Of a DNA stretch of 64,000 nt, positions 141 to 21,846 are shown piece by piece. Under the pieces are notes generated by a model that did not search any database, was not told the origin of the DNA, and saw nothing but the letters and a program-made list of their open reading frames with translations. The stretch is taken from assembly GCA_965208575.1 (NCBI GenBank), contig CBDBOV010000002.1, positions 608,001-672,000 on the forward strand. Reading direction: 5' to 3'. The stretch's first letter is position 1, and each line of letters starts with the position of its first letter. This DNA comes from Spirochaetia bacterium. Lineage in GTDB: Bacteria > Spirochaetota > Spirochaetia > SZUA-6 > Bin103. The translations under genes and the position numbers were made by a program.

Positions 141-905
141 TCAGCTCGAAAGACGTGCCGTAATCCTAAGCGAAGGCGCTGCGTACGCGGCGGCATGCGC
201 CAGAGTTCCAGGCGCAGCGCAAGAGTCACCTACCGGATATTCGGCACAATGCAGCACCACCATACCCAATCGGGACAGTTGTCCGACAACGCTTGATAGC
301 GAATGCATCCACTCGCGCGGACCGGGCTTCCTAATTATGCGATTTCCATCGGACCAGATCCATTTACGAATCGGCTTTCTCTCCGCTCCATCTTGAAATA
401 AGCTCCTCACAGAGTAGCCACGACCGTCCCAACTATCAACATCCAAGTTGGCTGCTCCCGGGTTTGCAAATTCCAAAACATACCAACCGCCGGGCTTAAG
501 CACATGTGCCACGCCACCGAACGACCTCCAGGGGTCCGGAACAAAATTGATGGACCACGCGTGCCAAACAAGGTTGAACGTATTCGCCGAAAACCGTTCA
601 AGCTCACGCATGTCCCCCAACTCTAGTTGAACATCGTATCCAAAGTGTAACGCCGCCTCCCGATCTCTCTCCAACTGATTCTCGGAAAAATCCAACACTG
701 TAACCCTGGATCCGAGTAGCCCGAACACAGCGCCATGCTGACCTCCTCCGCCGGCAAGGCAAAGCACGCTCGATCCTGTTACACACTCGTAAATATTTGC
801 CGTCCCATATATTTCCAAAGCACTGTCATATGTAAGCTCGAACCATGGCCTAGAGAAGCCAACACCAGCGGCGCTAAGAAGAAGCGATGGTCGTGGGCGT
901 TCCAA
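141..905 (-). CDS. Class I SAM-dependent methyltransferase (start uncertain)
   Basis: Motif I VLCLAGGGGQ, acidic VTVLDFS, GDM motif, LKPGG; visibly lower GC than the neighbouring nad DNA. Confidence 0.8.
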   Translation of the reverse strand: MERPRPSLLLSAAGVGFSRPWFELTYDSALEIYGTANIYECVTGSSVLCLAGGGGQHGAVFGLLGSRVTVLDFSENQLERDREAALHFGYDVQLELGDMRELERFSANTFNLVWHAWSINFVPDPWRSFGGVAHVLKPGGWYVLEFANPGAANLDVDSWDGRGYSVRSLFQDGAERKPIRKWIWSDGNRIIRKPGPREWMHSLSSVVGQLSRLGMVVLHCAEYPVGDSCAAPGTLAHAAAYAAPSLRITARLSS

Positions 906-955
906 GTGGTAACCGTGGGGATACGTATGGCAACTCTATAGGATACTTTAGTAAT

Positions 956-1513
956 AGCGACGTGTGCGTGACCTCGGCCAACGTGTACCGCATCATCGAG
1001 CGGCTGCCGCAGCGCGAGATCCTGTTCGTGCCCGACCGGCTGATGGCGGCCAACATCGCCCGCGAGATGGCGGCGCGCGGCATCGACAAGGTAATCCACA
1101 GCTCCGACGGCACCTGCCTGGTGCACGACCAGTTCACCGCCGGCGCCATCGAAGAGGCGCGCACACGGTTTCCGGGAGTCAAGGTGGTGAGCCACCCGGA
1201 GTGCACGCCGGAGGTGACCGCGGCCAGCGACTTCGTCGGCAGCACCGGCAAGATGATGGAGTACGTGCGCGACACCGACGCCACCTACTTCATGCTGCTC
1301 ACCGAGTGCGGCCTGGTGAGCCGGGTGGAGGTCGAGAACCCCGGCAAGCAGTTCGTCGGCTCCTGCCGCCTGTGCCCGCACATGAAGCGCAACAGCCTGC
1401 AGAAGATCCGCGACGTGCTGGTCGATCCGCAGCCGCACCAAATCATCGAGCTCGACGAGACGGTGCGGGTGGCGGCGCTGCGCTCCATCGACCGGATGTT
1501 CGAATTGACGTGA
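956..1513 (+). pseudogene. nadA: Quinolinate synthase NadA, C-terminal half only (5' truncated)
   Basis: DVCVTSAN, FVPD, GTCLVH, SHPEC, DFVGST, TECGL and CPHMK motifs; homology starts abruptly at 956 against AT-richer DNA. Confidence 0.85.
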
Positions 1514-1974
1514 TCCCGTTGTCGGCGCGGCGGGTCATCGAGACCGCCCTGGAGGAGGATCTGGGGCTGGGCGATGTCACCGGCAGCGCCGTGGTGCCGG
1601 CCGGCAGCGAGTGCCGGGTGGCGGTGGTGGCGCGCGAGGCGCTGGTGGTGTGCGGCGCCGAGATCGCCGCCGCCGTGTTCTGGCGCCTCGACGCCGACCT
1701 GAACGTGGAGCCGGCGCTCGCCGACGGCGCCGACGCCGGCCCCGGCGACCGCGTGCTGTACGTTTCGGGCGCCGCGCGGCCGATCCTGGCGGCAGAGCGC
1801 ACCGCCCTCAACCTGCTGCAGCACCTGTCCGGCATCGCCACCACGACCCGCGCCTATGCCGACCGGCTGCGCGGCACCGCGGCGGCGGTGTGCGACACGC
1901 GCAAGACCACGCCCGGCCTGCGCGAGCTGGAGAAGTACGCGGTGCGCTGCGGCGGCGGGCGCAACCACCGCGCC
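1510..1974 (+). pseudogene. nadC: Nicotinate-nucleotide pyrophosphorylase NadC, N-terminal part
   Basis: ALEEDLGLGDVT, ERTALNLLQHLSGIATTT, DTRKTTPGLRELEKYAVRCGGGRNHR; GTG overlaps the nadA stop. Confidence 0.88.
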
Positions 1975-2942
1975 GTGGACGCCATCGTGCGCGACGGGCC
2001 GCGCTTGGTGCGCGAGCTGCTGATCGACGACCTGCAGGTGGCGTTCGACCGCGACGCCGGCGGCGCGCTCCGCTTCACCCGCGAGGCGTCGCACTCCCGG
2101 CACCGCATCATCTACGCCAAGGACCATACCGGGCGCGCCATTCTGACCGCCCTGCACCGGCGGCTGGCGGAGCTGGCCGCGGCCGGCACCCTGCCCGGCG
2201 GCGGCAGCCTGACCGTGGCCACCGGCTGCTTCGCCGTCGACCTGCTCACCCTGTCGCACAGCTCGGTGGACTTCCTGGACCGCTACCGGCCGCTGAGCTG
2301 CATCGGCGCGCACGTACTGGACGTGGCCGCCGGCGAGGTGCGTCCGATCATGGCCAAGAAGACCGTCCTGGCCACCGGCGGCCTCGGCCAGGTCTACCTG
2401 CACAGCACCAACGACGCCGGCGCCTACGGCCACGGCGTGGCGATGGCCTACCGGGTCGGCGCGCGCGTCATCAACATGGAGTACGTGCAGTTCCATCCCA
2501 CCGTGTTCCACCGCCGCGGCGAGCGCCCGTTCCTGATCTCGGAGGCGGTGCGCGGCGAGGGCGGCGTGCTGATCAACCAGCAGGGCGAGGCCTTCATGGA
2601 GCGCTACCATCGCGACGGCTCGCTGGCGCCGCGCGACGTGATCTCCCGCTCCATCCACTCCGAGCTGCTGCGCGGGGCCAGCGACACCGTGTACATCGAC
2701 TTGGCCGGCGTCGACGCCGACTATGCGCGGCGCCGCTTCCCCACTATCAACGCCCGCCTGCTGGCCGCCGGCGTCGACATGACCCGCGAGCCGATCCCGG
2801 TGGTGCCGGCGGCGCACTACTCGTGCGGCGGCATCCACACCGACATGGCCGGCGACACCAACATCGCCCACCTGAGCGCCATTGGCGAGACCGCCTGCAC
2901 CGGCCTGCACGGCGCCAACCGGCTGGCCAGCACCACCGCGCC
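1964..2942 (+). repeat. 11-bp direct repeat ACCACCGCGCC at 1964-1974 and 2932-2942, flanking the nadB insert
   Basis: Identical 11-mer read at both junctions, 968 bp apart. Confidence 0.9.
1975..2934 (+). pseudogene. nadB: L-aspartate oxidase NadB, internal segment nested in nadC
   Basis: TREASHSRHRII, LATGG, NMEYVQFHPT, LISEAVRGEGG, LAPRDVISR, PVVPAAHYSCGGI, GETACTGLHGANRLAST; lacks the N-terminal FAD-binding GxGxxG. Confidence 0.88.
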
Positions 2943-3026
2943 TCGCTGGCCGACTGCGTCATGATCAAGGACAACCACATCGCGGTGGCCGGCGGCGTCG
3001 CCGCCGCGGTACGGCGCGCCCGCTGA
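2932..3026 (+). pseudogene. nadC: NadC continuation fragment
   Basis: HRASLADCVMIKDNHIAVAGGVAAAVRRAR, the canonical IKDNH motif that directly follows GGGxNHR in NadC. Confidence 0.85.
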
Positions 3027-3054
3027 GCGCGTAGGAGTCGCTCTTGAAGTCGGC
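3022..3054 (-). pseudogene. nadA: Tiny inverted NadA N-terminal fragment
   Basis: ADFKSDSYALS resembles the NadA ADFxGDS(Y/L)xLS motif. Confidence 0.55.
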
Positions 3055-3140
3055 GCAGCGCGCATGGCGGAGGCATGCCGCGTCCTGCGTGACGCGCTCG
3101 GTTGTTGACGCCGCGCGGCGACATCCTGATTCAGGTGCGG

Positions 3141-3453
3141 TCAGGGGCGCGGGCGGGTGCGGTCGAGGGAGTCGTTGCGGTAGTGGCAGCCGGCGCTGCG
3201 CGGGTTGCGCAAGGCGGCGTAGGTGATCAGCAGCGCGGTCTGCACGGCGTTGCGCAGCGCCAGCAGGCGCGGGGTGAGGGCGTTGTCGGCGTAGAAGCCG
3301 TCGATCTCGCTCTTCAGCTCGCGCAGCATGTTGCCGGCGCGGTCCAGGCGCTTGGCGGTGCGCACCAGCCCGACGTAGTGCCACATGGTGTTGCGGATCA
3401 CGCCCAGATCCTGGGTGATCAGTTCGTCGTCCGGCTCGGCGGACGCCATCTCT
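3141..3453 (-). pseudogene. nadB: NadB C-terminal helical domain, inverted
   Basis: IRNTMWHYVGLVRT, LRNAVQTALLITYAALRNPRSAGCHYR. Confidence 0.85.
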
Positions 3454-3746
3454 GCGCCGCGCAACCGATCGTCACCGGCATCATGGCAAACAACAACCAG
3501 AACCGTACGCTGAGTAATCGGCAACGTGGTCAACGCAACGAGCAAGCGCATGCGGAATCGCGGCTCGCCCAAGGTGAACGGGCAGACCCTTGTCGGCATT
3601 TCGAAACTCGTCCTTGGCTGAAACTTCGCTCCGTTCGGCTGACGCGAGAGCCGCATCTGTGGCACAGTGACAACTGAGAGTTCTCGTGAACATGTGTCGC
3701 AAACCAAGCCGATCTTGTCGGCAGGTGAACCACTCCGAGTAGTACC

Positions 3747-4154
3747 ATGCAAGTCGAGACTCTGCGGCGCAGACTCCGCGTGCTGGTCGCCAAGACCCCG
3801 GTGGTAGGCGTTGTCCTGTCCGTCGCCACCCTGTACGGACTGTGGCTGGTGGCGACCACGACAGCCGTCCCGGAGCTCATTTCGGCGACGGCGCAACCGT
3901 CGGACAACGGCGTGTTCTTCGCCGATTTCCCTACCACGCCCGGCACCTCCATAGTGCGCGTATCGATCGTCGACGGCAACGGAGAGAGATTCGAGGCGAA
4001 GCTGCTCCGTCGCGAGAGCACGACGGCACGAACCCAGATCTGGGCCCGCTCGGACGGCCGGATCGCAACACCGGGCGCCACTATGGAACTTGCCGTAGGT
4101 GAGCGATCTTTGCTCAGCTACGCCGTTGCGGTGCTGTTTCGGCGGGACGAATGA
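3747..4154 (+). CDS. Small membrane-anchored protein with HlyD/MFP-like C-terminus
   Basis: N-terminal TM helix; C-terminal PGATMELAVGERSLLSY resembles HlyD PGMxxxxEIxxGxRxxLSY; ATGA overlap with the next gene. Confidence 0.55.
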   Translation: MQVETLRRRLRVLVAKTPVVGVVLSVATLYGLWLVATTTAVPELISATAQPSDNGVFFADFPTTPGTSIVRVSIVDGNGERFEAKLLRRESTTARTQIWARSDGRIATPGATMELAVGERSLLSYAVAVLFRRDE

Positions 4155-5911
4155 GCTCGGATCTCGAGCCCGCCGACAGAGCGGAGTACCGAAGCCGCTT
4201 GGCGTTCGCCTGGTGGATAGCGCGCGGCGACCGCATGGCGTGGGTTACGTCGCTGGTCAACGCCCTGTTCACCCACTTCTTCCGTGCTCTGCTGCCCATC
4301 GTGTACGCGCTCGTCGTCGATCAGGTTATGACCCACCGCGATCTGTCGCTGGTCCCGGCGCTGGCGTTGTGCTTCGCGATGATGCTAGGCGCGAACGAAG
4401 GGTTGTTCGCCATCGGCCACGTCTCCTGGGTCTACAAGGTCACCGACTTCGACGCCAAGGTACGTCGGCGCATATTCCACCGCATTCTCTCGGCCAGGAG
4501 CGAGTCACTCGAACGCCGGAAGACCGGGGACTTGGCCGAGACGGTCGAGGCCGATGCGCAGCAGATCACTTGGTACGTCGACGTGTTCGGCATCTGGATA
4601 CCGGACGCGTTCATCGGTCTGGTCATCGCGTTGCTGTTCATGGGAGCCATCAGTCCGCTCCTGGCGCTCCTGGCCGCCATAGCGGCACCCCTTACCGCTT
4701 TCCTGTCCCATTTGATTGGACTGCGCGGGCGCCGCGTAGCCGACGCCTATCGCACTCGGTACGGCGGCTACTCAAGCTGGCTGTTCGAGATCATTCGCGG
4801 CGCGGCCGACCTTCAGCAGATGGGAGCCACCACCACCGTGGCGCGCTGGCTGGTGGCCCGACTGCGGGGGTTGATCCACCTCAAGGTGAGGCAGTCTCTG
4901 GTGGAGCTTTCCTCGGAGCGGGTTCGCGAACTGGTCGCGACAGTGCTGGAGATTGCCTTTTTCGTGGCGGTCAGTGCGCTGGTACTGTCCGACCGGCTGA
5001 CGATCGGCGGATACATCGCGGCGGCGACCTACTTCCTGACCGCCCGCGCCGAGCTCAGCGAGATCAGCGACGACCTGTTCGGGATGCGCATCTACTCGGT
5101 CGGGGTGGACCGAATCCGCGAGGTGTTGGATCTGCCGCCCGAGCACGACCGCGGTCCGGCCCTCGACGCTGCCCCGCGAGCGGTAGTCTTCGATGACGTC
5201 CGGTTTCGTTACCGCCGGGACGTTCCGGTGCTGGACGGCATCTCATTGCGGGTCGAGCCGGGAGAGCAGGTGGCGATCGTCGGCGGCAGCGGCGCCGGCA
5301 AGTCGTCGATTGTTACGCTGCTCGCACGGTTGCGTGACCCCGATACCGGCTCGGTCATGATCGGTGACCATGACATCGCACACTATTCCCGCACGTCGGT
5401 GCGCAGATGGTTCGGATTCGTGCAGCACGATCCGCTGATATTCAGCGACACGGTGCGCGCCAACCTCTGTCTGGAGCCGAGTGAGGATACCGGCGGTGTC
5501 GCCGACGAGTTGCTGTGGGAGGCCTGCCGGGTTGCGCAGATCAGTGACACCGTGCGCACCTTCGAGGACGGCCTGGACACGTCTATCGGATCCGAAGGGC
5601 GTACGCTTTCGGCGGGCGAGAAGCAGCGGCTGGAGCTGGCCCGGGTGCTGCTCCGGCAACCGACCGTGCTGGTGATCGACGAGGGGCTTTCCGCCGTCGA
5701 TCCCGACACCGAGCGCTCCATCTACCGCGGGCTGTTCGGTGCCGACCAGCGATGGTCGACCATCATCATCGCCCATCGGCTCAGTTCGATCATCGATTGT
5801 AAGCGCATCATGGTCCTGGACGGCGGGGTTATCGCCGCAACCGGTTCGCACCATACACTGATGCGTGGTTGCGCAGCCTATCAGCGGCTCTTCCGGGAGC
5901 AGACCGAGTGA
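4151..5911 (+). CDS. ABC exporter, fused TMD+NBD
   Basis: N-terminal TM domain, Walker A GGSGAGKS, LSAGEKQR signature, LVIDE, IAHR. Confidence 0.92.
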   Translation: MSSDLEPADRAEYRSRLAFAWWIARGDRMAWVTSLVNALFTHFFRALLPIVYALVVDQVMTHRDLSLVPALALCFAMMLGANEGLFAIGHVSWVYKVTDFDAKVRRRIFHRILSARSESLERRKTGDLAETVEADAQQITWYVDVFGIWIPDAFIGLVIALLFMGAISPLLALLAAIAAPLTAFLSHLIGLRGRRVADAYRTRYGGYSSWLFEIIRGAADLQQMGATTTVARWLVARLRGLIHLKVRQSLVELSSERVRELVATVLEIAFFVAVSALVLSDRLTIGGYIAAATYFLTARAELSEISDDLFGMRIYSVGVDRIREVLDLPPEHDRGPALDAAPRAVVFDDVRFRYRRDVPVLDGISLRVEPGEQVAIVGGSGAGKSSIVTLLARLRDPDTGSVMIGDHDIAHYSRTSVRRWFGFVQHDPLIFSDTVRANLCLEPSEDTGGVADELLWEACRVAQISDTVRTFEDGLDTSIGSEGRTLSAGEKQRLELARVLLRQPTVLVIDEGLSAVDPDTERSIYRGLFGADQRWSTIIIAHRLSSIIDCKRIMVLDGGVIAATGSHHTLMRGCAAYQRLFREQTE

Positions 5912-7638
5912 ATACCGGGGCTTCCGAACTCGCAGCGGACGTGGCCAAGGTGGCGCTGCGGCCCGCGCGTTCGTTGGCCGTGTTACTGGTGGTGCTGAAG
6001 GGCCTGCTGGTGGTCACCGCGTTGATCCCGCCGGCGCTGACCGGGCTGATCGTAGACGAGGTTCTGGTCGGCCGGAACGTGGATCGCCTCTGGCTGCTGC
6101 TCGGCACCTTCGTCGTCGTATACGTGGTCGAGACCGTATTCAAGGCGGGGGAGATCTGGGTGCAGAACCGCGCCGTCCACCGCGTGGTTTTCCGCCACAG
6201 GATGCACGTATTCCGTTCCATCCAGCGGCTCCCATGGCGCGAGCTGATGCATCATGCCCCCGGCGAGCTGCTCAAACGCGTGGAAGACGACACCGAAGAA
6301 CTGGGCGCGCTGCTGCTGCAGCGGATCGAGCGCATTTTCAACTGGTGTCTCATCGTGGTCGGGGGCGTGGTCTGCGTCGCCATGAGTTGGCAGCTTGCGC
6401 TGGCGGCCTCCGCGCTCACCGCCGGCCTCTGGCTGGTCGGACGGTGGATCAAACGGCAAGCCGGCGTTCGCAGCCGTGCGCACCGGGAAGCGATGGGAAG
6501 GTGGTCCGCTTGGTTGCACGAGTCGCTGCTCGGTTGGCGCGAGGTGCGCATGCTGGCGATCGAGAACGCACAGAGCGCGAAGATGGCGGCTTGGCTGCGC
6601 AGAATCAACCGGCTGCGCGGGGCCAGCCACACGTTCACCTACCTGCAACACGCCATCGGGCGCCTGCAGGAGCACTACGTGTCACAGGCAACGCTCTACT
6701 TTCTCGGCGGCGTACTGATCTTCGCCGGGTCACTGACCTTGGGCGGGTTGATTGCCTTCATGCGCTACTTCGTACGCGTCCTCGATGCGGCGGACCGCAT
6801 CAATGCACTGAACGCCGAGTTGGGTGACCTGCAGCCGCGCCTGCAGCGCTCCTTTGAGGTTGCCGAGTGGCAGCTGATTCCACCTCCGGGGGCGCGCATC
6901 GATCCGTCTCGCGTACCCGACATCGAATTGCGTGACGTGGCCCTCGGGTACGACGGTGCCGAGCCTGTTCTGCGGAGCGTCGACTGCTTTATCCCCGCCG
7001 GCAGCCGTGTGGCGATCGTCGGTGCGTCCGGCAGCGGCAAGTCCACCATCGCACGCATCGTTGCCGGGCAGCAGTTGCCCACTTCGGGCGAGTTACGAAT
7101 CGGCGGCCACCGGTTGCGCTCGGCCGACATCATGCGGGCGCTGGGGAACGCAATTCTGATTGGCCAGGACAGTGTCGTCTACAATATGTCGATCAGGGAC
7201 AATCTCCTGCTGGCGCGCCCGGGCAGCACAGACGGCGAGCTGATGGCGGTCTGCGCCGATGCCCGGCTCCGGGAACTCGTCGAGCGCCTGCCCGGAGGTC
7301 TGGACGCCGTCGTCGGCGAGCGCGGGCGCCAGCTCTCGGCCGGTGAACGGCAGCGGCTCATTCTCGCCCGTACCATGTTGCTCGATCGTCCGATTTTGGT
7401 TCTCGATGAAGCGATGTCGCAACTGGACGACGCCACCGCACGGTCCATCAATCAGAAACTGCTCTTCGAGCGCTACCGGGGAACGGTGATCGTCATCGCC
7501 CACCGGGTGAGCACGATCATCGATTTGCCACGGATATTGGTCCTCGACGGCGGCCGGTTCACAGCGGACGGGCGCCACGCCGAGTTGCTGCACACCAGCG
7601 AGGAATACCGCACCCTTTTTTCATCGGAACCCGAGTAA
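5908..7638 (+). CDS. ABC exporter, fused TMD+NBD (likely heterodimer partner)
   Basis: GASGSGKST, LSAGERQR, LVLDE, IAHR; GTG overlaps the upstream stop. Confidence 0.92.
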   Translation: MNTGASELAADVAKVALRPARSLAVLLVVLKGLLVVTALIPPALTGLIVDEVLVGRNVDRLWLLLGTFVVVYVVETVFKAGEIWVQNRAVHRVVFRHRMHVFRSIQRLPWRELMHHAPGELLKRVEDDTEELGALLLQRIERIFNWCLIVVGGVVCVAMSWQLALAASALTAGLWLVGRWIKRQAGVRSRAHREAMGRWSAWLHESLLGWREVRMLAIENAQSAKMAAWLRRINRLRGASHTFTYLQHAIGRLQEHYVSQATLYFLGGVLIFAGSLTLGGLIAFMRYFVRVLDAADRINALNAELGDLQPRLQRSFEVAEWQLIPPPGARIDPSRVPDIELRDVALGYDGAEPVLRSVDCFIPAGSRVAIVGASGSGKSTIARIVAGQQLPTSGELRIGGHRLRSADIMRALGNAILIGQDSVVYNMSIRDNLLLARPGSTDGELMAVCADARLRELVERLPGGLDAVVGERGRQLSAGERQRLILARTMLLDRPILVLDEAMSQLDDATARSINQKLLFERYRGTVIVIAHRVSTIIDLPRILVLDGGRFTADGRHAELLHTSEEYRTLFSSEPE

Positions 7639-7644
7639 GACACG

Positions 7645-8367
7645 CTACAGTCCTCGCAACCAGCCGCCGTCAACCGGGAGGTTGACCCCCGTGAGGTAGG
7701 AGCCCGCGGGGCTGCAAAGGAAAGAAACCACCTGCGCGACTTCGGCATGGGTGGCGGCGCGCGACAGGGGAATCTCGGCCGAGCGCCAGTTGCTGTTTGG
7801 GTCGAGCACCACCCACGGCAGTACCGAGTTGACGCGGATGCGGTCGGCTGCCAGCCGGCGCGCGAGCAGTTTGGTAAGCGCGCTTAACGCGGCGCGCATG
7901 GAGCCGCCGATAGGGAACATCAGGGTTGGTTCCAGCCCGTCCGCGGCCGAGATGTTGACGATCGCGCCGCCGCCGGCCTCGCGCAGCAGGGGTATCGCCG
8001 CGCGCGAGAGCCTCAAGACGCTCATGAACAACAACTCGAACGAGTCCAGCCACGCAGCGTCCGGCAGCGTCAGCGGATCGCCTTTGGGGGGGTCGCCGGC
8101 GTTGTTCACCAGGACGTCCAGTCGGCCCCAGCGCTCGCCCACCGCATCGATCAGGCGGGCGATGTCCGGCGGCCGCGTCAAGTCGCCTCGCAGCACCAAG
8201 CCGTCGACTTCCTTGGCTACGGCGTGCACCCGTTCGCTGCGGGCCATCAGGGCAACCTCATACCCTTCGGTGGCGAGTTGCTTGGCACAGGCCGCCCCGA
8301 TGCCGCGGCTCGCCGCCGTCACTATCGCAACCCTTTGGTGTCCACATTCATTTTCGTTCGCCATCAC
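7645..8367 (-). CDS. SDR family oxidoreductase (atypical active site)
   Basis: TAASRGIG, LVNNAG, SYLTGVNLPVDGG; no YxxxK. Confidence 0.88.
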   Translation of the reverse strand: MMANENECGHQRVAIVTAASRGIGAACAKQLATEGYEVALMARSERVHAVAKEVDGLVLRGDLTRPPDIARLIDAVGERWGRLDVLVNNAGDPPKGDPLTLPDAAWLDSFELLFMSVLRLSRAAIPLLREAGGGAIVNISAADGLEPTLMFPIGGSMRAALSALTKLLARRLAADRIRVNSVLPWVVLDPNSNWRSAEIPLSRAATHAEVAQVVSFLCSPAGSYLTGVNLPVDGGWLRGL

Positions 8368-9064
8368 TTCCTCCCAATCCTGGCAGTAGGGCTGGACGAG
8401 CCCGCAAGTTCGATCCTTATGCCGATCAGTTCCTCAGAGACGTGATACTAACTCAATTGAACTCACCAACTGATCCTCAGCATTAATCCGCCGCTGTAGC
8501 CCCAAACCGGCAACGACTCTGACCACAACGCGGCCCGGGAGCGGGAACTCAGAGACCAGCTTACTTGTTGAACGCTCCATCGATCCAGAGGGCGCATGTC
8601 GTCAATGTCGCCAAAATTGCCGTCCAATCGAGAGACTGATATCCTGTATGAGGCAGTGCGTTGTCCCCTTGTCCGCGGCGTGTTGTTCGGAGCTTTCCCG
8701 GTCGCGACGCTTCGGCTACGCGTACACGCGGGGATGGGGATAAAGAGGGGGCCGAGGGGCCGTCGTGGCGTGGCGGATTTACGGGTTGGACCGCAAGTAG
8801 CGGGGTCGCGAGTGGCCTACTAGCTACGGTCGGCAGTAGAAAGCGCCGAGCCCACAGCGGCGTGGCGGGATACCGGCGATTGGAGGACAACGGCAGGACG
8901 CGGCTACTCGTTTAGTCGCCATTGCGGTAGGTCATGTCCTTATAGGAAACTTCACGCTCGCTTACCAGGAGGCGCGTGATCTGTGTTGGTGCACGGTTGA
9001 GGCGCCGCGCAAGCCAATCTACGACCTCCGGTAACTGGGCGATATGTGTAGAAACGTAGAAAAC

Positions 9065-11452
9065 GTGACTAAGCTGTGGTACAAGGCGCCGGCGAGAGAG
9101 TGGCTGGAGGGGTTGCCGATTGGCACGGGTAGGTTGGCGGCGATGGTGCTCGGCGCCTTCCGGCGGGAGCGCGTCGCCCTGAATCACGAGTGCCTGTGGA
9201 AGGGGGTGAATCGCCGCCGGGACAACGAGGTGAGCCGGGGCGCGCTGCCGGAAGTGCGGCGCCTGCTGCTGGCGGGCAACTACGTGGACGGGACGCGCGC
9301 CGCCCGGGACGCGTTCGGCGGCGGTGGCGGCGGCAGCGGGCGCCCGCAGCGGGTGGACCCGTACCAGCCCGCCGGCGACCTGCACCTGGAGCTGCTAACC
9401 CCCGGTCCCATTGCCGATTACCGCAGGGAGCTGGATCTGGATACGGCCAGTGCGACGGTGTCGTATCTGGCCGGGGGCCGCCGGTTCACCCGCCAGTACG
9501 TCGCGCACCTGGTCGAGGACCTGGTCCTGGTGCGGCTGACCCACGACGGCGAGCCGTTCGACTGCGTGGCGTGGCTCGACCGCACCCACGATCACGACTG
9601 CGAACTCACCTTCACCACCGAGGCGCCGGCCATGGATGGCGCCGGCACCGGTGCCGGCGGCGGCGCCGCCGGTGCGGGCGAGGCGGACGCGGCGGCGTGC
9701 CTGACCATGACCGGGGACATTCGCGGCGGCGTGGATTTCCGGGTGCGCGGTGAGGTGTGGTGCCGGGGCGGGCGGCGGCGCGTCGTCGATGGGCGCAAGC
9801 TGCTGTGCGAAGGGGTCACCGAGGCGCTGTTCGCGGTCGACATCGGCGTGTCGGCGTTCGGCAGGTCCGCCGCCGACGAGTGCGGGGCGCGGCGGCTGCG
9901 CCCCGCACTTGCATCGGATGCGGGCGCCTGGGACGACCTGCTGCGGACTCACGTCAGCGAGCACGAGCGCCACTTCGGCAGCATGCGGCTCGACCTGGCG
10001 CTGCCGGACACCGACGTGGCCGGCCTGCCCACCGACGAGCGCATCCGGCGCGTGCGGGAGGGGCAGCCGGACCCCGGCCTGGCGCTGCTGTACTTCCACT
10101 ACGGGCGCTACCTGCTGTGCGCCTCCTCGGCCACCGCCGCGCTGCCGGCCAACCTGCAGGGCAAGTGGAACGAGGACCTGCAGCCGCCCTGGGAGAGCGA
10201 TTACCACCACGACATCAACCTGCAGATGAACTACTGGATCGCCGAGCCGGCCGGCATGCAGCGCTACGTGGAGGCGCTGCTGCAGCACATCGAACGCTTC
10301 GTGCCGCACGCCCGCAAGGCGGCCATGGACCTGTACGGCTGCCGCGGCGTCTGGTACCCGATCCAGACCGACGCCTGGGGCCGCTCGACGCCGGAATCGT
10401 ACGGCTGGGCGGTGTGGATCGGGGCCGCCCCGTGGCTGGCGCAGCACGTGTGGTGGCACTGGGAGTACGGGCACGACGCCTGCTTCCTGCGCACCCGCGC
10501 CTACCCCTTCTTCAAGGAGGTGGCGGCGTTCTACGAGGACTACCTGGTCGAAGATGACGCCGGCGTGTTGCAGATCGTGCCGTCGCAGTCGCCCGAGAAC
10601 CGCTTCGTCGGCGACGGCGGCCCGCCGGTGAGCATCTGCGTGTCGGCGACCATGGACGTGATCCTGGCCCGCGCGGCCTTCGACTACGCGGTCCGCTCGG
10701 CCGAGATCCTGGACGTCGACCCCGAGTTGCGCCGCCGCTGGCGCGGCATGGCGGCGCGCCTGCCGGACCTGCGGATCGGCCGCCACGGCCAGTTGCAGGA
10801 GTGGAACGAGGACTTCGACGAGGTGGAGCCATCGCACCGGCACGTCTCCCACCTGGTCGGGCTGCACCCCGGCGACCTGCTGGACCCGGAGCGCACTCCC
10901 GAGCTGTGGCGGGCGGCCGAGGTGAGCCTGGAGCGGCGGCTGGCCGCCGGCGGCGGCCACACCGGCTGGAGCCGGGCGTGGACCGCCTGCCTGTTCGCCC
11001 GGCTGGGCCGCGGCGAGGACGCCTGGGAACACCTGAACCACCTGATCACCGACTTCGCCACCGACTCGCTGCTGGACCTGCACCCGCCGCGCATCTTCCA
11101 GATCGACGGCAACCTGGGCGGTGCCGCGGCGGTGATCGAAATGCTGCTGCACAGCTACCGCGGCGAGCTCCACCTGCTGCCGGCCCTGCCGGCGGCGTGG
11201 CCGGAGGGCCGCGTGTCCGGCCTGCGGGCGCGCGGCGGCGTTACCGTAGCGATGGCGTGGCGCAACGGCGAGCTGGTCGAGGCGACGCTGGAAGGCTGCG
11301 TCGCCGGCCCCTGCACCATCCTGCACGCCCCCGTACACTGGCAGGTCACCGACACCGCCGGCCGCGCCGTGCCCATCATCCGCACCGGCCACCGCATCAC
11401 CTTCCCCCTCTCCCCAGGCAAACCCTGCCGCCTGCGAACAGTCGACGGCTGA
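9065..11452 (+). CDS. Glycoside hydrolase family 95 (alpha-L-fucosidase-like)
   Basis: W.EGLPIG.GRLAAM, YGRYLL, ANLQG.WN, DYH.DINLQMNYW, SPEN, HRHVSHL, TGWS, FQIDGN. Confidence 0.92.
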   Translation: MTKLWYKAPAREWLEGLPIGTGRLAAMVLGAFRRERVALNHECLWKGVNRRRDNEVSRGALPEVRRLLLAGNYVDGTRAARDAFGGGGGGSGRPQRVDPYQPAGDLHLELLTPGPIADYRRELDLDTASATVSYLAGGRRFTRQYVAHLVEDLVLVRLTHDGEPFDCVAWLDRTHDHDCELTFTTEAPAMDGAGTGAGGGAAGAGEADAAACLTMTGDIRGGVDFRVRGEVWCRGGRRRVVDGRKLLCEGVTEALFAVDIGVSAFGRSAADECGARRLRPALASDAGAWDDLLRTHVSEHERHFGSMRLDLALPDTDVAGLPTDERIRRVREGQPDPGLALLYFHYGRYLLCASSATAALPANLQGKWNEDLQPPWESDYHHDINLQMNYWIAEPAGMQRYVEALLQHIERFVPHARKAAMDLYGCRGVWYPIQTDAWGRSTPESYGWAVWIGAAPWLAQHVWWHWEYGHDACFLRTRAYPFFKEVAAFYEDYLVEDDAGVLQIVPSQSPENRFVGDGGPPVSICVSATMDVILARAAFDYAVRSAEILDVDPELRRRWRGMAARLPDLRIGRHGQLQEWNEDFDEVEPSHRHVSHLVGLHPGDLLDPERTPELWRAAEVSLERRLAAGGGHTGWSRAWTACLFARLGRGEDAWEHLNHLITDFATDSLLDLHPPRIFQIDGNLGGAAAVIEMLLHSYRGELHLLPALPAAWPEGRVSGLRARGGVTVAMAWRNGELVEATLEGCVAGPCTILHAPVHWQVTDTAGRAVPIIRTGHRITFPLSPGKPCRLRTVDG

Positions 11453-19965: not shown

Positions 19966-21846
19966 CTACTCGCCGTCGGGCAGGTAGAGGTAGGTGGAGT
20001 CGAGGCCGTTCAGGGTGTCGTAGAACACGTTGGCCCACTTGTCGCGCACCGCCAGGAACGACAGCGGGTACACGACGTAGATCATCGGCGCCTGGTCGAG
20101 CAGCAGCCTCTGGTACTCGTCGTAGATCGCCTTCGCCTTCTCCTTGTCAATGGTGAACCGCCCCTCGTTGTAGAGGTGGTCGACGCGCGCCTCCCACTCG
20201 GTGTACGGCTCCTCCTGCAGCGGGTGCCACAGGTGGAAGTTGCCCTTCGACTGCCACACGTTGCTGCCCCCCTCCGGCCAGTAGTTGGAGCCGAGCGAGG
20301 CGGTGGCCACGTGCCAGTCGTAGGTGCTGGTGAGCATCTCGACCAGCTTCTGGAAGTCGATCGGGCGCACGTTGCCGGTGATGCCGATCTGCTTCAGTTC
20401 GTCGGAGAAGATGTTCATGATGTCCACGCCGACGTTGTTGGAAGCGCCGACGTGGATGTTGAACTCGATGTGGTTGCCGTCGGCGTCCTCCATCAGCCCC
20501 TCCGCGTTGGGCCGAATGCCGATCCCGGCCAGCAGTTCGCGCGCCCGGTCGGGGTCGTAGTCGAAGCGCTGCCGGATCGACTCGTCGAAGTAGGGGTTGG
20601 CGCGGGCGAAGAAGTGCAGCGCCGGCTCGGCCAGCCCGCGGTACACCTGGCTGGCGATGCGGTCGCGGTTGAGCACCGAGCTCATCGCCTGGCGGAACTC
20701 GGTCTGGCTGAACCAACGGTATACCAGCGGGTCCATGGTGTCGGGATTCTGGTTGAAGGCGACGAACGAAGACCCCAGCGTGGCGCCGCCGTTGTAGACG
20801 GTGTAGTCGGGATCCTCGGCGTCGAGCAGCTCGTCCAGGTCCTCGGGGCGCACCGAGTAGGCGTCCTTGTTGCCCTCCTTGAACAGCAGGAACTCGGTGT
20901 TGCGGTCGGGCACGATCTGGTAGACGGCGCGCTCGATGTAGGGCAGCGAGACGCCGGCCTCGTCCTTCTTCCAGTAGTGCGGGTTGCGCACCGCCACCAC
21001 GCGCACGCCGGGTTCGTACTCGGCGATGTAGTAGCCGCCGATGGAGGGGACGGTGGCGGGATCGGTGTCGATGCTGAACAGGTTGAGCACGCCCTCGGCG
21101 CCGCCTTCCTGCTTGGCCGGCTCGTAGAGGTAGCGCGGGCCGAAATCCATGTTGGTGGACAGGATCGGGTTGGCGACGATGCGCGGGTAGTGGAACGCGA
21201 CGGTACGGTCGTCGATCTTCTGCACCGCGATGCGCGCCTCGGAGCCGTCGGCCATCTCGATGAACTGGCCGGCGTAGCCCGGCTGCTGCAGCTCCTGGTC
21301 GCCCTCGATCTCGTCGTACCAGAACACGATGTCGTCGGAGGTCACCTTCACGCGCGTGTCGGGGTCGGCGAGGGTGGTCCAGTACAGGTCGTCACGCAGG
21401 GTGTAGATCACCGACAGCGTGTCGGCCGCCTCGTCCGCCACCACCTCGAAGCTGGCCAGGTTGGGCAGGAACTCGCGCGTGCACGGGTCGTAGTCGGCCA
21501 GGTAGTCGAACAGCACGCCGACCACCGCGCCGGTGTCGCCGTCGCGCGCGAGCATGGTGTTGAAGCTCTTGGGATCGTTGTTGATGGAGGTGAGCCAGGT
21601 GCCGCCGACCTTGCCCAGGGCGAACTCCTGGCAGCCGTGCCGCTCGGTGGTCTTGGCCAGGATCTCGGCGCGCGCCTTCTCGCGCTCGCTCATCGCCTCG
21701 CCTTCGGACATCTCCTCGTCCGCGGCGCCGGCCGCCCACAGCATGCCGGCGGGCAGCAGGATCATGGCCAGCACGGCCGGCACGGTTTGCCAGGTGGAGC
21801 GCGCGGCACGCCGGCCGCGGCGGGGGAACGGAAGCAGTTTGTACAT
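19966..21846 (-). CDS. Family 5 ABC substrate-binding protein
   Basis: Signal-like N-terminus, DPKSFN, LRDDLYW, DIVF, RNPHYW, FRQAMS..LNR. Confidence 0.9.
   Translation of the reverse strand: MYKLLPFPRRGRRAARSTWQTVPAVLAMILLPAGMLWAAGAADEEMSEGEAMSEREKARAEILAKTTERHGCQEFALGKVGGTWLTSINNDPKSFNTMLARDGDTGAVVGVLFDYLADYDPCTREFLPNLASFEVVADEAADTLSVIYTLRDDLYWTTLADPDTRVKVTSDDIVFWYDEIEGDQELQQPGYAGQFIEMADGSEARIAVQKIDDRTVAFHYPRIVANPILSTNMDFGPRYLYEPAKQEGGAEGVLNLFSIDTDPATVPSIGGYYIAEYEPGVRVVAVRNPHYWKKDEAGVSLPYIERAVYQIVPDRNTEFLLFKEGNKDAYSVRPEDLDELLDAEDPDYTVYNGGATLGSSFVAFNQNPDTMDPLVYRWFSQTEFRQAMSSVLNRDRIASQVYRGLAEPALHFFARANPYFDESIRQRFDYDPDRARELLAGIGIRPNAEGLMEDADGNHIEFNIHVGASNNVGVDIMNIFSDELKQIGITGNVRPIDFQKLVEMLTSTYDWHVATASLGSNYWPEGGSNVWQSKGNFHLWHPLQEEPYTEWEARVDHLYNEGRFTIDKEKAKAIYDEYQRLLLDQAPMIYVVYPLSFLAVRDKWANVFYDTLNGLDSTYLYLPDGE

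Follow-up and report, generated by a model that had tools for sequence, protein, structure and literature searches.

A Scrambled, Very Probably Non-Functional Spare Copy of the nadA-nadC-nadB Operon in a Spirochaetia Genome

Introduction

How does a nadC gene come to hold a segment of nadB between two identical 11-bp direct repeats, and does the removal of that segment give back a working gene? These questions are raised by a locus near the start of the window, a term used here for the whole stretch of 64,000 nucleotides that was analysed (C2:608001–672000 of the genome of a Spirochaetia bacterium, designated G000). A preliminary description of the locus proposed a templated insertion of host-gene DNA with target duplication and, more speculatively, a pointer-flanked excisable segment resembling the internal eliminated sequences (IESs) of ciliates or skin-type interruptions. 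Comparison of the window with the rest of its own genome and with ten other genomes of the genus indicates that positions 956–3517 are very probably a dead and scrambled spare nadA-nadC-nadB operon without function. The DNA itself shows which pieces are present and how they are ordered and oriented, where microhomology lies at their joins, and that an intact paralogue exists. As the specific copying mechanism, serial microhomology-mediated template switching, known as fork stalling and template switching/microhomology-mediated break-induced replication (FoSTeS/MMBIR), is an evenly balanced proposition.

The nadB Segment within nadC

The 11-mer ACCACCGCGCC is present on the plus strand at 1964–1974 and again at 2932–2942, with a third copy in the window at 21521. 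Dinucleotide shuffles of the window give an expectation of 0.22 matches, and three or more were reached in 0 of 100 shuffles. The block holding the repeats is 75% G+C, and 23 exact 11-mers occur twice in 956–3452 vs 20 in a control gene of equal length, such that the 11-mer repeat alone is not rare in this G+C-rich block. What is beyond chance is that both copies of ACCACCGCGCC sit exactly on the two homology breakpoints; at an offset of 968, ACCACCGCGCC is also the only identity run of at least 11 in the whole window.

The DNA between the two copies is internal nadB, matching positions 70–369 of 489 in TIGR00551 (NCBIfam, L-aspartate oxidase) and positions 71–413 of 414 in FAD_binding_2 (Pfam). 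Its left junction is in frame, producing a chimeric NadC-NadB frame at 1510–2964, and past the right junction nadC continues in a different frame (the ORF ending at 3026, ...NHRASLADCVMIKDNHIAVAGG...). The two halves of the interrupted gene abut in the Pfam profile QRPTase_C, with positions 1–46 of 169 upstream of the insert and 45–74 of 169 downstream. The preliminary description was thus accurate on the repeats, on the nadB identity of the segment and on the frames at both junctions.

An intact nadA-nadC-nadB operon, colinear and with stop and start codons that overlap, is referred to here as P1 and lies 285 kb away on the same contig (C2:324603->321114, minus strand). A search of the window against its own genome gave two further nad copies on C2, P1 and a decayed copy, P2, and the nadB genes of these two are the only other matches of the insert in this genome. 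The P1 genes score as follows:

P1 nadA: 338.8 bits (cut-off 294), profile positions 6–304 of 306
P1 nadC: 318.8 bits (cut-off 198.4), profile positions 2–268 of 269
P1 nadB: 440 bits, below the cut-off of 452.75, full length at positions 3–487 of 489

The P1 nadC is uninterrupted (...GGGRNHRASLADCVMIKDNH...), and its nucleotides run straight across the insertion site. Removal of the insert together with one repeat copy gives exactly the contiguous nadC of P1. The claim that exact excision restores nadC is therefore correct for the local sequence, but no gene is restored, as nadC would still stop at about residue 185 of 279. The claim that the insert is host-gene DNA rather than a mobile element is borne out, the source being the operon's own nadB (P1 322500->321537).

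In contrast to P1, the window copy contains neither a full-length, one-frame NadC nor a full-length NadB. The nadC part before the insert matches TIGR00078 (carboxylating nicotinate-nucleotide diphosphorylase) at positions 2–145 of 269 with 161.4 bits, below the cut-off of 198.4, and is followed only by the QRPTase_C match in the other frame and the stop at 3026. For NadB, the partial TIGR00551 match of the insert is complemented only by a C-terminal piece inverted at 3141–3452.

Pieces of the Patchwork

At least six gene pieces, three of them inverted, make up the patchwork at window positions 956–3517. Its features are:

956–1513, plus strand: nadA 3' fragment, about codons 163–340 and the stop, the first ~162 codons absent; Pfam NadA positions 115–295 of 295
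1510–1974, plus strand: nadC 5' part, residues 1–155, with a GTG start that overlaps the nadA stop; TIGR00078, QRPTase_N and QRPTase_C; colinear with P1
956–1974, direct: nadA 3' and nadC 5' as one piece, P1 C2:324138->323120, 97.06% identity
1964–1974, plus strand: left ACCACCGCGCC copy, native nadC; its final four bases (CGCC) coincide with the native start of the nadB piece (J1)
1971–2934, plus strand: nadB middle (the insert), P1 C2:322500->321537, ~96.3–96.6% identity, without the N-terminal ~90 residues and the C-terminal part
2932–2942, plus strand: right ACCACCGCGCC copy, native nadC; its first three bases, ACC, are also the native end of the nadB piece (J2)
2932–3023, plus strand: 92-bp nadC continuation, about residues 152–182, P1 C2:323130->323039, 96.7% identity, broken off at J3
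3022–3054, minus strand (inverted): 33-bp nadA piece, about codons 75–85 (ADFKSDSYALS), P1 C2:324370–324402
3050–3452, minus strand (inverted): nadB 3' end with its stop (3141–3452) and ~90 bp of native 3' flank (3050–3140)
3452–3517, minus strand (inverted): 66 bp of an ABC-transporter gene, encoding 22 residues of the first transmembrane helix, with a stop ahead of it

The five nad pieces stand in the order 2-4-3-(-1)-(-5), two of them inverted, with 95.5–97.1% identity to P1, and all derive from a 3.4-kb source interval. By subtraction of P1 coordinates, the window copy lacks ~1.07 kb of operon sequence: the greater portion of the 5' end of nadA, the 3' portion of nadC together with the 5' portion of nadB, and a 102-bp stretch of nadB. 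At the left edge, nadA homology begins exactly at 956 whether the comparison is made with P1, with P2 or with the genus genome G006. The short inverted nadA piece is identical to P1 at 30 of 30 positions (C2:324370–324399) and 100% identical over 33 bp to G010. The inverted nadB 3' end is 95.5% identical to P1 C2:321122–321434 and matches Pfam Succ_DH_flav_C. A search by 7-letter words found no source in G000 for 3055–3138, which corresponds to the native nadB 3' flank as kept in G003 and G001; the flank piece matches the DNA directly beyond nadB in G003 at 75% and a nearby stretch in G001 at 82%. The ABC-transporter fragment shares 14 of 22 residues with a paralogue at G000 C5:816002–817063 (E 2.6e-5, pairwise tblastn), the DNA being 86% identical over 49 bp.

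In all ten other genomes of the genus, the matches are broken at the same points as those to P1, which is the pattern of a colinear operon, and no match across any junction was found in the ten. Words for J2 (26 nt) and J1 (24 nt) gave 0 exact matches in the collections metagenome_contigs and genome_contigs, from which records of the own genome may be excluded.

Junctions and Microhomology

Each of the four internal joins has letters that fit both partners, and a fifth join beyond them leads to the ABC-transporter gene piece:

J1, nadC to nadB: 4 shared letters (CGCC)
J2, nadB to nadC: 3 shared letters (ACC)
J3, nadC to inverted nadA: 2 shared letters (GC)
J4, inverted nadA to inverted nadB flank: 2–5 shared letters

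We estimate the joint chance of microhomologies at least this long at the four joins at ~2e-4, given a match probability of 0.31 per base. The CGCC of J1 sits in a longer imperfect match, in which CAACCACCGCGCC of nadC and CAACCCCGCCGCC of native nadB are identical at 10 of 13 positions, and at J2 the hexamer TCGCTG natively follows both partners. Only ~0.5 kb separates the break from the insert's template, which is downstream of it in the native operon.

These microhomologies change the reading of the direct repeat. Native microhomology explains 7 of its 11 bases (four at the end of the left copy and three at the start of the right copy), and only ACCG is necessarily duplicated. Pieces 2 and 3, neighbours in the native gene, overlap by 4–11 bp. 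The earlier proposal of a templated insertion with an 11-bp target duplication holds in that a piece of host nadB is present; it does not hold for the duplication, of which only ACCG is unambiguous. Nor does the insertion stand alone, as its two junctions belong to a patchwork with at least four internal junctions and a fifth.

Age and Ancestry of the Window Copy

A tree built from the concatenated pieces places the window copy as the sister of the P1 of its own genome (support 97/97), with branch lengths of 0.015 (window copy) and 0.021 (P1). Differences between the two, polarised with G006 (4 further sites are ambiguous and 3 are indel columns), are distributed as follows:

Window-copy branch: 24 synonymous, 7 non-synonymous, 0 stops
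P1 branch: 34 synonymous, 10 non-synonymous, 0 stops

As 24 of the 31 changes on the window branch are synonymous and none is a stop, the copy (or the template behind it) functioned as an operon over the greater part of its divergence. Judged from these substitutions, the scrambling is recent, with almost no neutral changes since inactivation.

Junctions in Read-Derived Contigs

Logan contigs, which are built from reads, were used to probe whether the junctions exist outside the assembly. In run X19, possibly the source sample itself, 0.91 of the sampled words are present; 32 of the 327 contig pieces were listed. Zero-mismatch X19 contigs cover 2824–2990 (J2), 2994–3187 (J3–J5/start of the inverted nadB end), 500–985 (left edge) and 3423–4500 (right edge), with depths of 18–26 vs 12–18 in the flanks. 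At both outer edges the nad side contributes just 30 letters, one below the 31 required to count as a bridge. J2 to J5 therefore exist in read-derived contigs, although, since X19 may be the source sample, this support bears on the assembler and not on the library. The preliminary description had taken an absence of junction-spanning reads as the mark of an artefact; the X19 contigs span J2 and J3–J5, but J1 was not bridged among the 32 of 327 pieces listed. Three further runs from sponge metagenomes (X1, X3 and X4) contain 0.21–0.35 of the sampled words and carry mostly P1-type variants.

A Possible Mechanism

FoSTeS/MMBIR has been described for human copy-number variants, and related instability has been described in starving Escherichia coli (PMC2583991, PMC3161906, PMC6902434). 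The locus resembles such rearrangements in having several junctions within a few kilobases, microhomology of 2–5 bp, an insertion templated by a nearby site, mixed orientations, short stretches between switches and a small duplication where synthesis returns. It differs in being a fixed scar in a spare operon of a natural bacterial genome, in which formation of the joins by replication is our interpretation. Two features that mark FoSTeS/MMBIR, microhomology at the junctions and multiple switches between nearby templates including the opposite strand, are found in the window, where several joins fall within 2.6 kb, stretches of ~960, 92, 33 and ~400 nt separate the switches, and both orientations occur.

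Under this mechanism, DNA synthesis through nadC would have stopped at a hairpin-forming site. The 3' end would then have re-paired through the 4-bp match, set in the 10/13 match, with nadB ~0.5 kb further down the operon. After ~960 nt of nadB had been copied, the strand would have returned via the 3-bp match to a point a few bases behind that of departure, and the 4–11 bases re-copied on return would now appear as the 'direct repeat'. A further switch by this process, presumably of low fidelity, would have come 92 nt later and led to 33 nt of opposite-strand nadA; the nadB 3' flank and 3' end, likewise on the opposite strand, would have been next, followed by a fragment of a different gene. 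The nadC breakpoint does lie in the 3' arm of a predicted hairpin of the native gene (-21.7 kcal/mol, z -1.96, with 7 of 200 shuffles folding as well). The only sign of copying itself is the 4–11 bp overlap of pieces 2 and 3, which copying can explain and a clean cut cannot. That the joins were made by copying rather than cutting, and in one event, is our inference.

Several observations weigh against this reading. A short duplication and short microhomologies would likewise result from end joining after a staggered, filled-in break, and the genome has Ku. The predicted hairpin folds only marginally better than shuffled sequences, such that its role as a stalling site may be no more than a weak hint. 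The divergence on the window branch indicates that today's P1 was not the template, and the source may have survived, as expected of a copy, or been consumed, as expected of a cut. There is also the lack of a J1 bridge among the contig pieces listed. Finally, run X4, which belongs to another study, contains a contig of depth 16.5 in which 3072 is connected to 3628 with a change of strand, the shorter side being 118 letters long. An inversion of 3072–3627 in a related strain would explain this joint, which means that at least one further rearrangement separates related strains and weakens the claim of one event. No inverted repeats at 3072 and 3627 were found among the 25 longest pairs listed of 63.

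A wider version of the template-switching reading takes the whole patchwork, with its at least six pieces, five joins and two source loci, as the product of one catastrophic multi-template copying event, a very recent bacterial counterpart of chromoanasynthesis in the spare NAD operon of a sponge-associated bacterium. We offer this only tentatively and consider it unlikely. If it were true, the locus would be arranged differently in related strains from other sponge samples, and the process would be traceable in natural populations.

Alternative Explanations

Breakage and end joining is the alternative that survives best, and is possible though doubtful. In this explanation a spare or imported operon was fragmented, part of it was lost, and the rest was re-ligated randomly, either by non-homologous end joining (NHEJ) with Ku and LigD or by a microhomology-mediated route. 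The 4–11 bp duplication would come from a staggered nadC break filled in on both ends. Ku is encoded at C5:579317–579862 (151.8 bits, above the cut-off), and microhomologies of 2–5 bp are within the range for bacterial end joining. The order 2-4-3-(-1)-(-5) with ~1.07 kb lost resembles shattering and rejoining, and lower-G+C flanks and an unrelated gene piece have been joined in as well. The locus is like bacterial NHEJ with fill-in and the capture of DNA pieces in the presence of Ku, the short microhomologies, the loss of fragments and the random order and orientation. In contrast, the overlap of neighbouring pieces requires the added assumption of a staggered cut with fill-in, and both this overlap and the extended imperfect matches (10/13 at J1 and TCGCTG at J2) are better explained by the annealing of a primer end.

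A stepwise origin is improbable, even though each of its steps is a common bacterial event. A tandem duplication of 1.6 kb, from the nadC 11-mer to the end of the nadB piece, would create J2; J1 would arise by a deletion of the DNA separating the nadC 11-mer from its imperfect nadB counterpart; and unrelated deletions and inversions would follow. The genome is repeat-rich (1.18 Mb of 6.5 Mb), and the X4 contig with the 3072/3628 joint shows continued rearrangement of the locus in related strains. The difficulty is that the left ends of the duplication and of the deletion must coincide within 4–11 bp, for which we estimate a chance of ~1–2% in a 1-kb target. No intermediate form was found in the ten genus genomes. 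Template switching, end joining and stepwise change nonetheless agree on the outcome, a non-functional scar in a spare operon, which we hold with high confidence.

An assembly or read chimera, with junctions that are not in the cell, is very unlikely. This explanation draws on the metagenome-type assembly with an estimated contamination of 5.75%, on two paralogous operons that could confuse an assembler, and on the absence of the J1 bridge from the contig pieces listed. It is opposed by the zero-mismatch X19 contigs that span J2, J3–J5 and both outer edges, and 33-bp inverted pieces with microhomology are not products of assemblers. Additionally, the window copy differs from P1 by 3–4% in every piece, a uniform divergence that excludes a chimera built from P1 reads.

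Weakest is the programmed, pointer-flanked excisable element of the IES or skin type, which can be set aside as highly improbable: exact 11-bp direct repeats stand at both ends and their precise deletion gives native nadC, yet the restored nadC, broken off at 3023–3026, would run no further than about residue 185 of 279 and would follow a nadA without ~162 codons, nadB is in two pieces, one of them inverted, and an intact operon is already present. No recombinase was found in the insert, which is nadB from end to end, or among the proteins of nine neighbouring ORFs, the search not extending to a trans-acting enzyme elsewhere. The interrupted form is not conserved in any of the ten genus genomes, none of which matches across a junction, and the J1 and J2 words are absent from the two collections. 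A contig of run X4 does join 1963 to 2932, with 11 letters fitting both sides, which is exactly the joint that excision would leave. As this is what any intact paralogous nadC gives, and as X4 carries P1-type variants along the whole stretch, the test by reads with an excised junction, suggested in the preliminary description, is confounded, and the joint that it called for, although present, does not speak for excision. Like ciliate IESs, Bacillus skin-type elements and cyanobacterial intervening elements, the locus has a gene interrupted between short direct repeats whose precise removal recreates an uninterrupted sequence. Unlike these, the insert is a piece of a neighbouring gene without a recombinase, its excision gives no complete gene, the arrangement is not conserved in relatives, and an intact operon copy exists. 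The idea of a pointer-flanked excisable segment is accordingly not sustained, as nothing functional would be restored.

A transposon with target-site duplication was also considered and rejected. The apparent 11-bp duplication flanking the insert is the point of likeness. Against it, the insert consists of nadB coding sequence in colinear order (96% identity to the native gene) and carries no transposase domain, 7 of the 11 bases are native microhomology, and the only other copies in the own genome are the nadB genes of P1 and P2, terminal inverted repeats not having been scanned separately.

Surroundings of the Patchwork

The patchwork is bordered by DNA of lower G+C content (0.53–0.58 at 1–900 and 0.58 at 3451–3750, vs 0.70–0.76 inside it). 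The left flank is:

108–955: lower-G+C DNA (0.53–0.58) with a methyltransferase-like ORF at 141–905, minus strand (Methyltransf_11, E 6e-13)

This flank has no match in any of the ten genus genomes, where only 1–107 was matched, in G007, and the methyltransferase-like ORF is probably foreign. On the right, matches begin at 3765/3775 and are limited to G003 and G007, where they lie at other chromosomal places. No empty pre-insertion site could be reconstructed from flank matches in the ten genomes. The nine neighbouring ORF proteins that were scanned (window 141–8367) comprise a methyltransferase, two ABC transporters, a short-chain dehydrogenase/reductase (SDR) and nad fragments.

The whole mosaic region (~9.7 kb) is bracketed by a 2349-bp direct repeat, 98.7% identical between window 9075–11423 and G000 C2:604993–607341. 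The window copy of this repeat lies in an 802-aa ORF (9044–11452), which we take from its motifs to resemble a GH95-type glycoside hydrolase. Homologous recombination between the two copies could delete the mosaic region.

Other nad Copies and Remnants

The P2 copy, at about C2:308197->304943, is 84–85% identical to the window copy and is itself decayed, with the nadC and nadB frames broken; it is 94% identical to the operon of G003 and 84% to P1. Its nadA homology begins at C2:308197, equivalent to P1 324378, inside the 33-bp nadA piece that is inverted in the window. In place of the nadA 5' part, P2 has a ~2.4-kb stretch of lower G+C content (0.576), which contains an ORF of 336 aa in single copy (P2 region C2:304943–310840).

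A fourth nad remnant, at G000 C2:295096–297295, retains 192 bp from the 3' end of a nadB resembling that of P2 (88.5% identity) and adjoins a 2.0-kb repeat with 99.8–99.9% identical copies on C1, C2, C5 and C6, which is probably an insertion sequence.

In G001 (C1:386000–401000), an extra 148-bp nadB 3' fragment (8307–8454 of that stretch) lies 1.5 kb beyond the intact nadB. It is 96.6% identical to the inverted piece of the window, vs ~94% for the intact nadB of G001 itself. The nadB flank of the window is matched over 62 bp (3609–3670) a further 4.6 kb beyond the extra fragment. Together, the fragment and the flank match indicate that extra nad operon remnants occur in another genome of the genus.

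Across G000, non-self matches (at least 85% identity over at least 100 bp) cover 1.18 Mb of 6.50 Mb. In a rough genome-wide scan, 29 of 74 low-copy match clusters were non-colinear, four of the 29 representing the nad case, viewed from each side. The others for the most part appear to lie between neighbouring stretches of one contig, and they form the basis for no further claim of templated insertion.

Significance

Read from its sequence, the structure in the window appears to be non-functional, a pseudogene scar in which nothing is likely to be regulated, mobile or functional. It is not a new mechanism, and resembles known templated insertions and complex rearrangements of replication-based repair. 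The locus also carries a warning, as the signature in which excision restores the frame, and reads with an 'excised' junction, arise automatically wherever an intact paralogue is present. What makes the locus a clean natural specimen is that the intact operon type is available in the same genome and in ten relatives, which allows the breakpoints to be read to the base. Complex copy-paste rearrangements are well studied in human disease loci. Cases such as this one help to calibrate how frequent they are in bacterial genomes, especially the repeat-rich genomes of symbionts.

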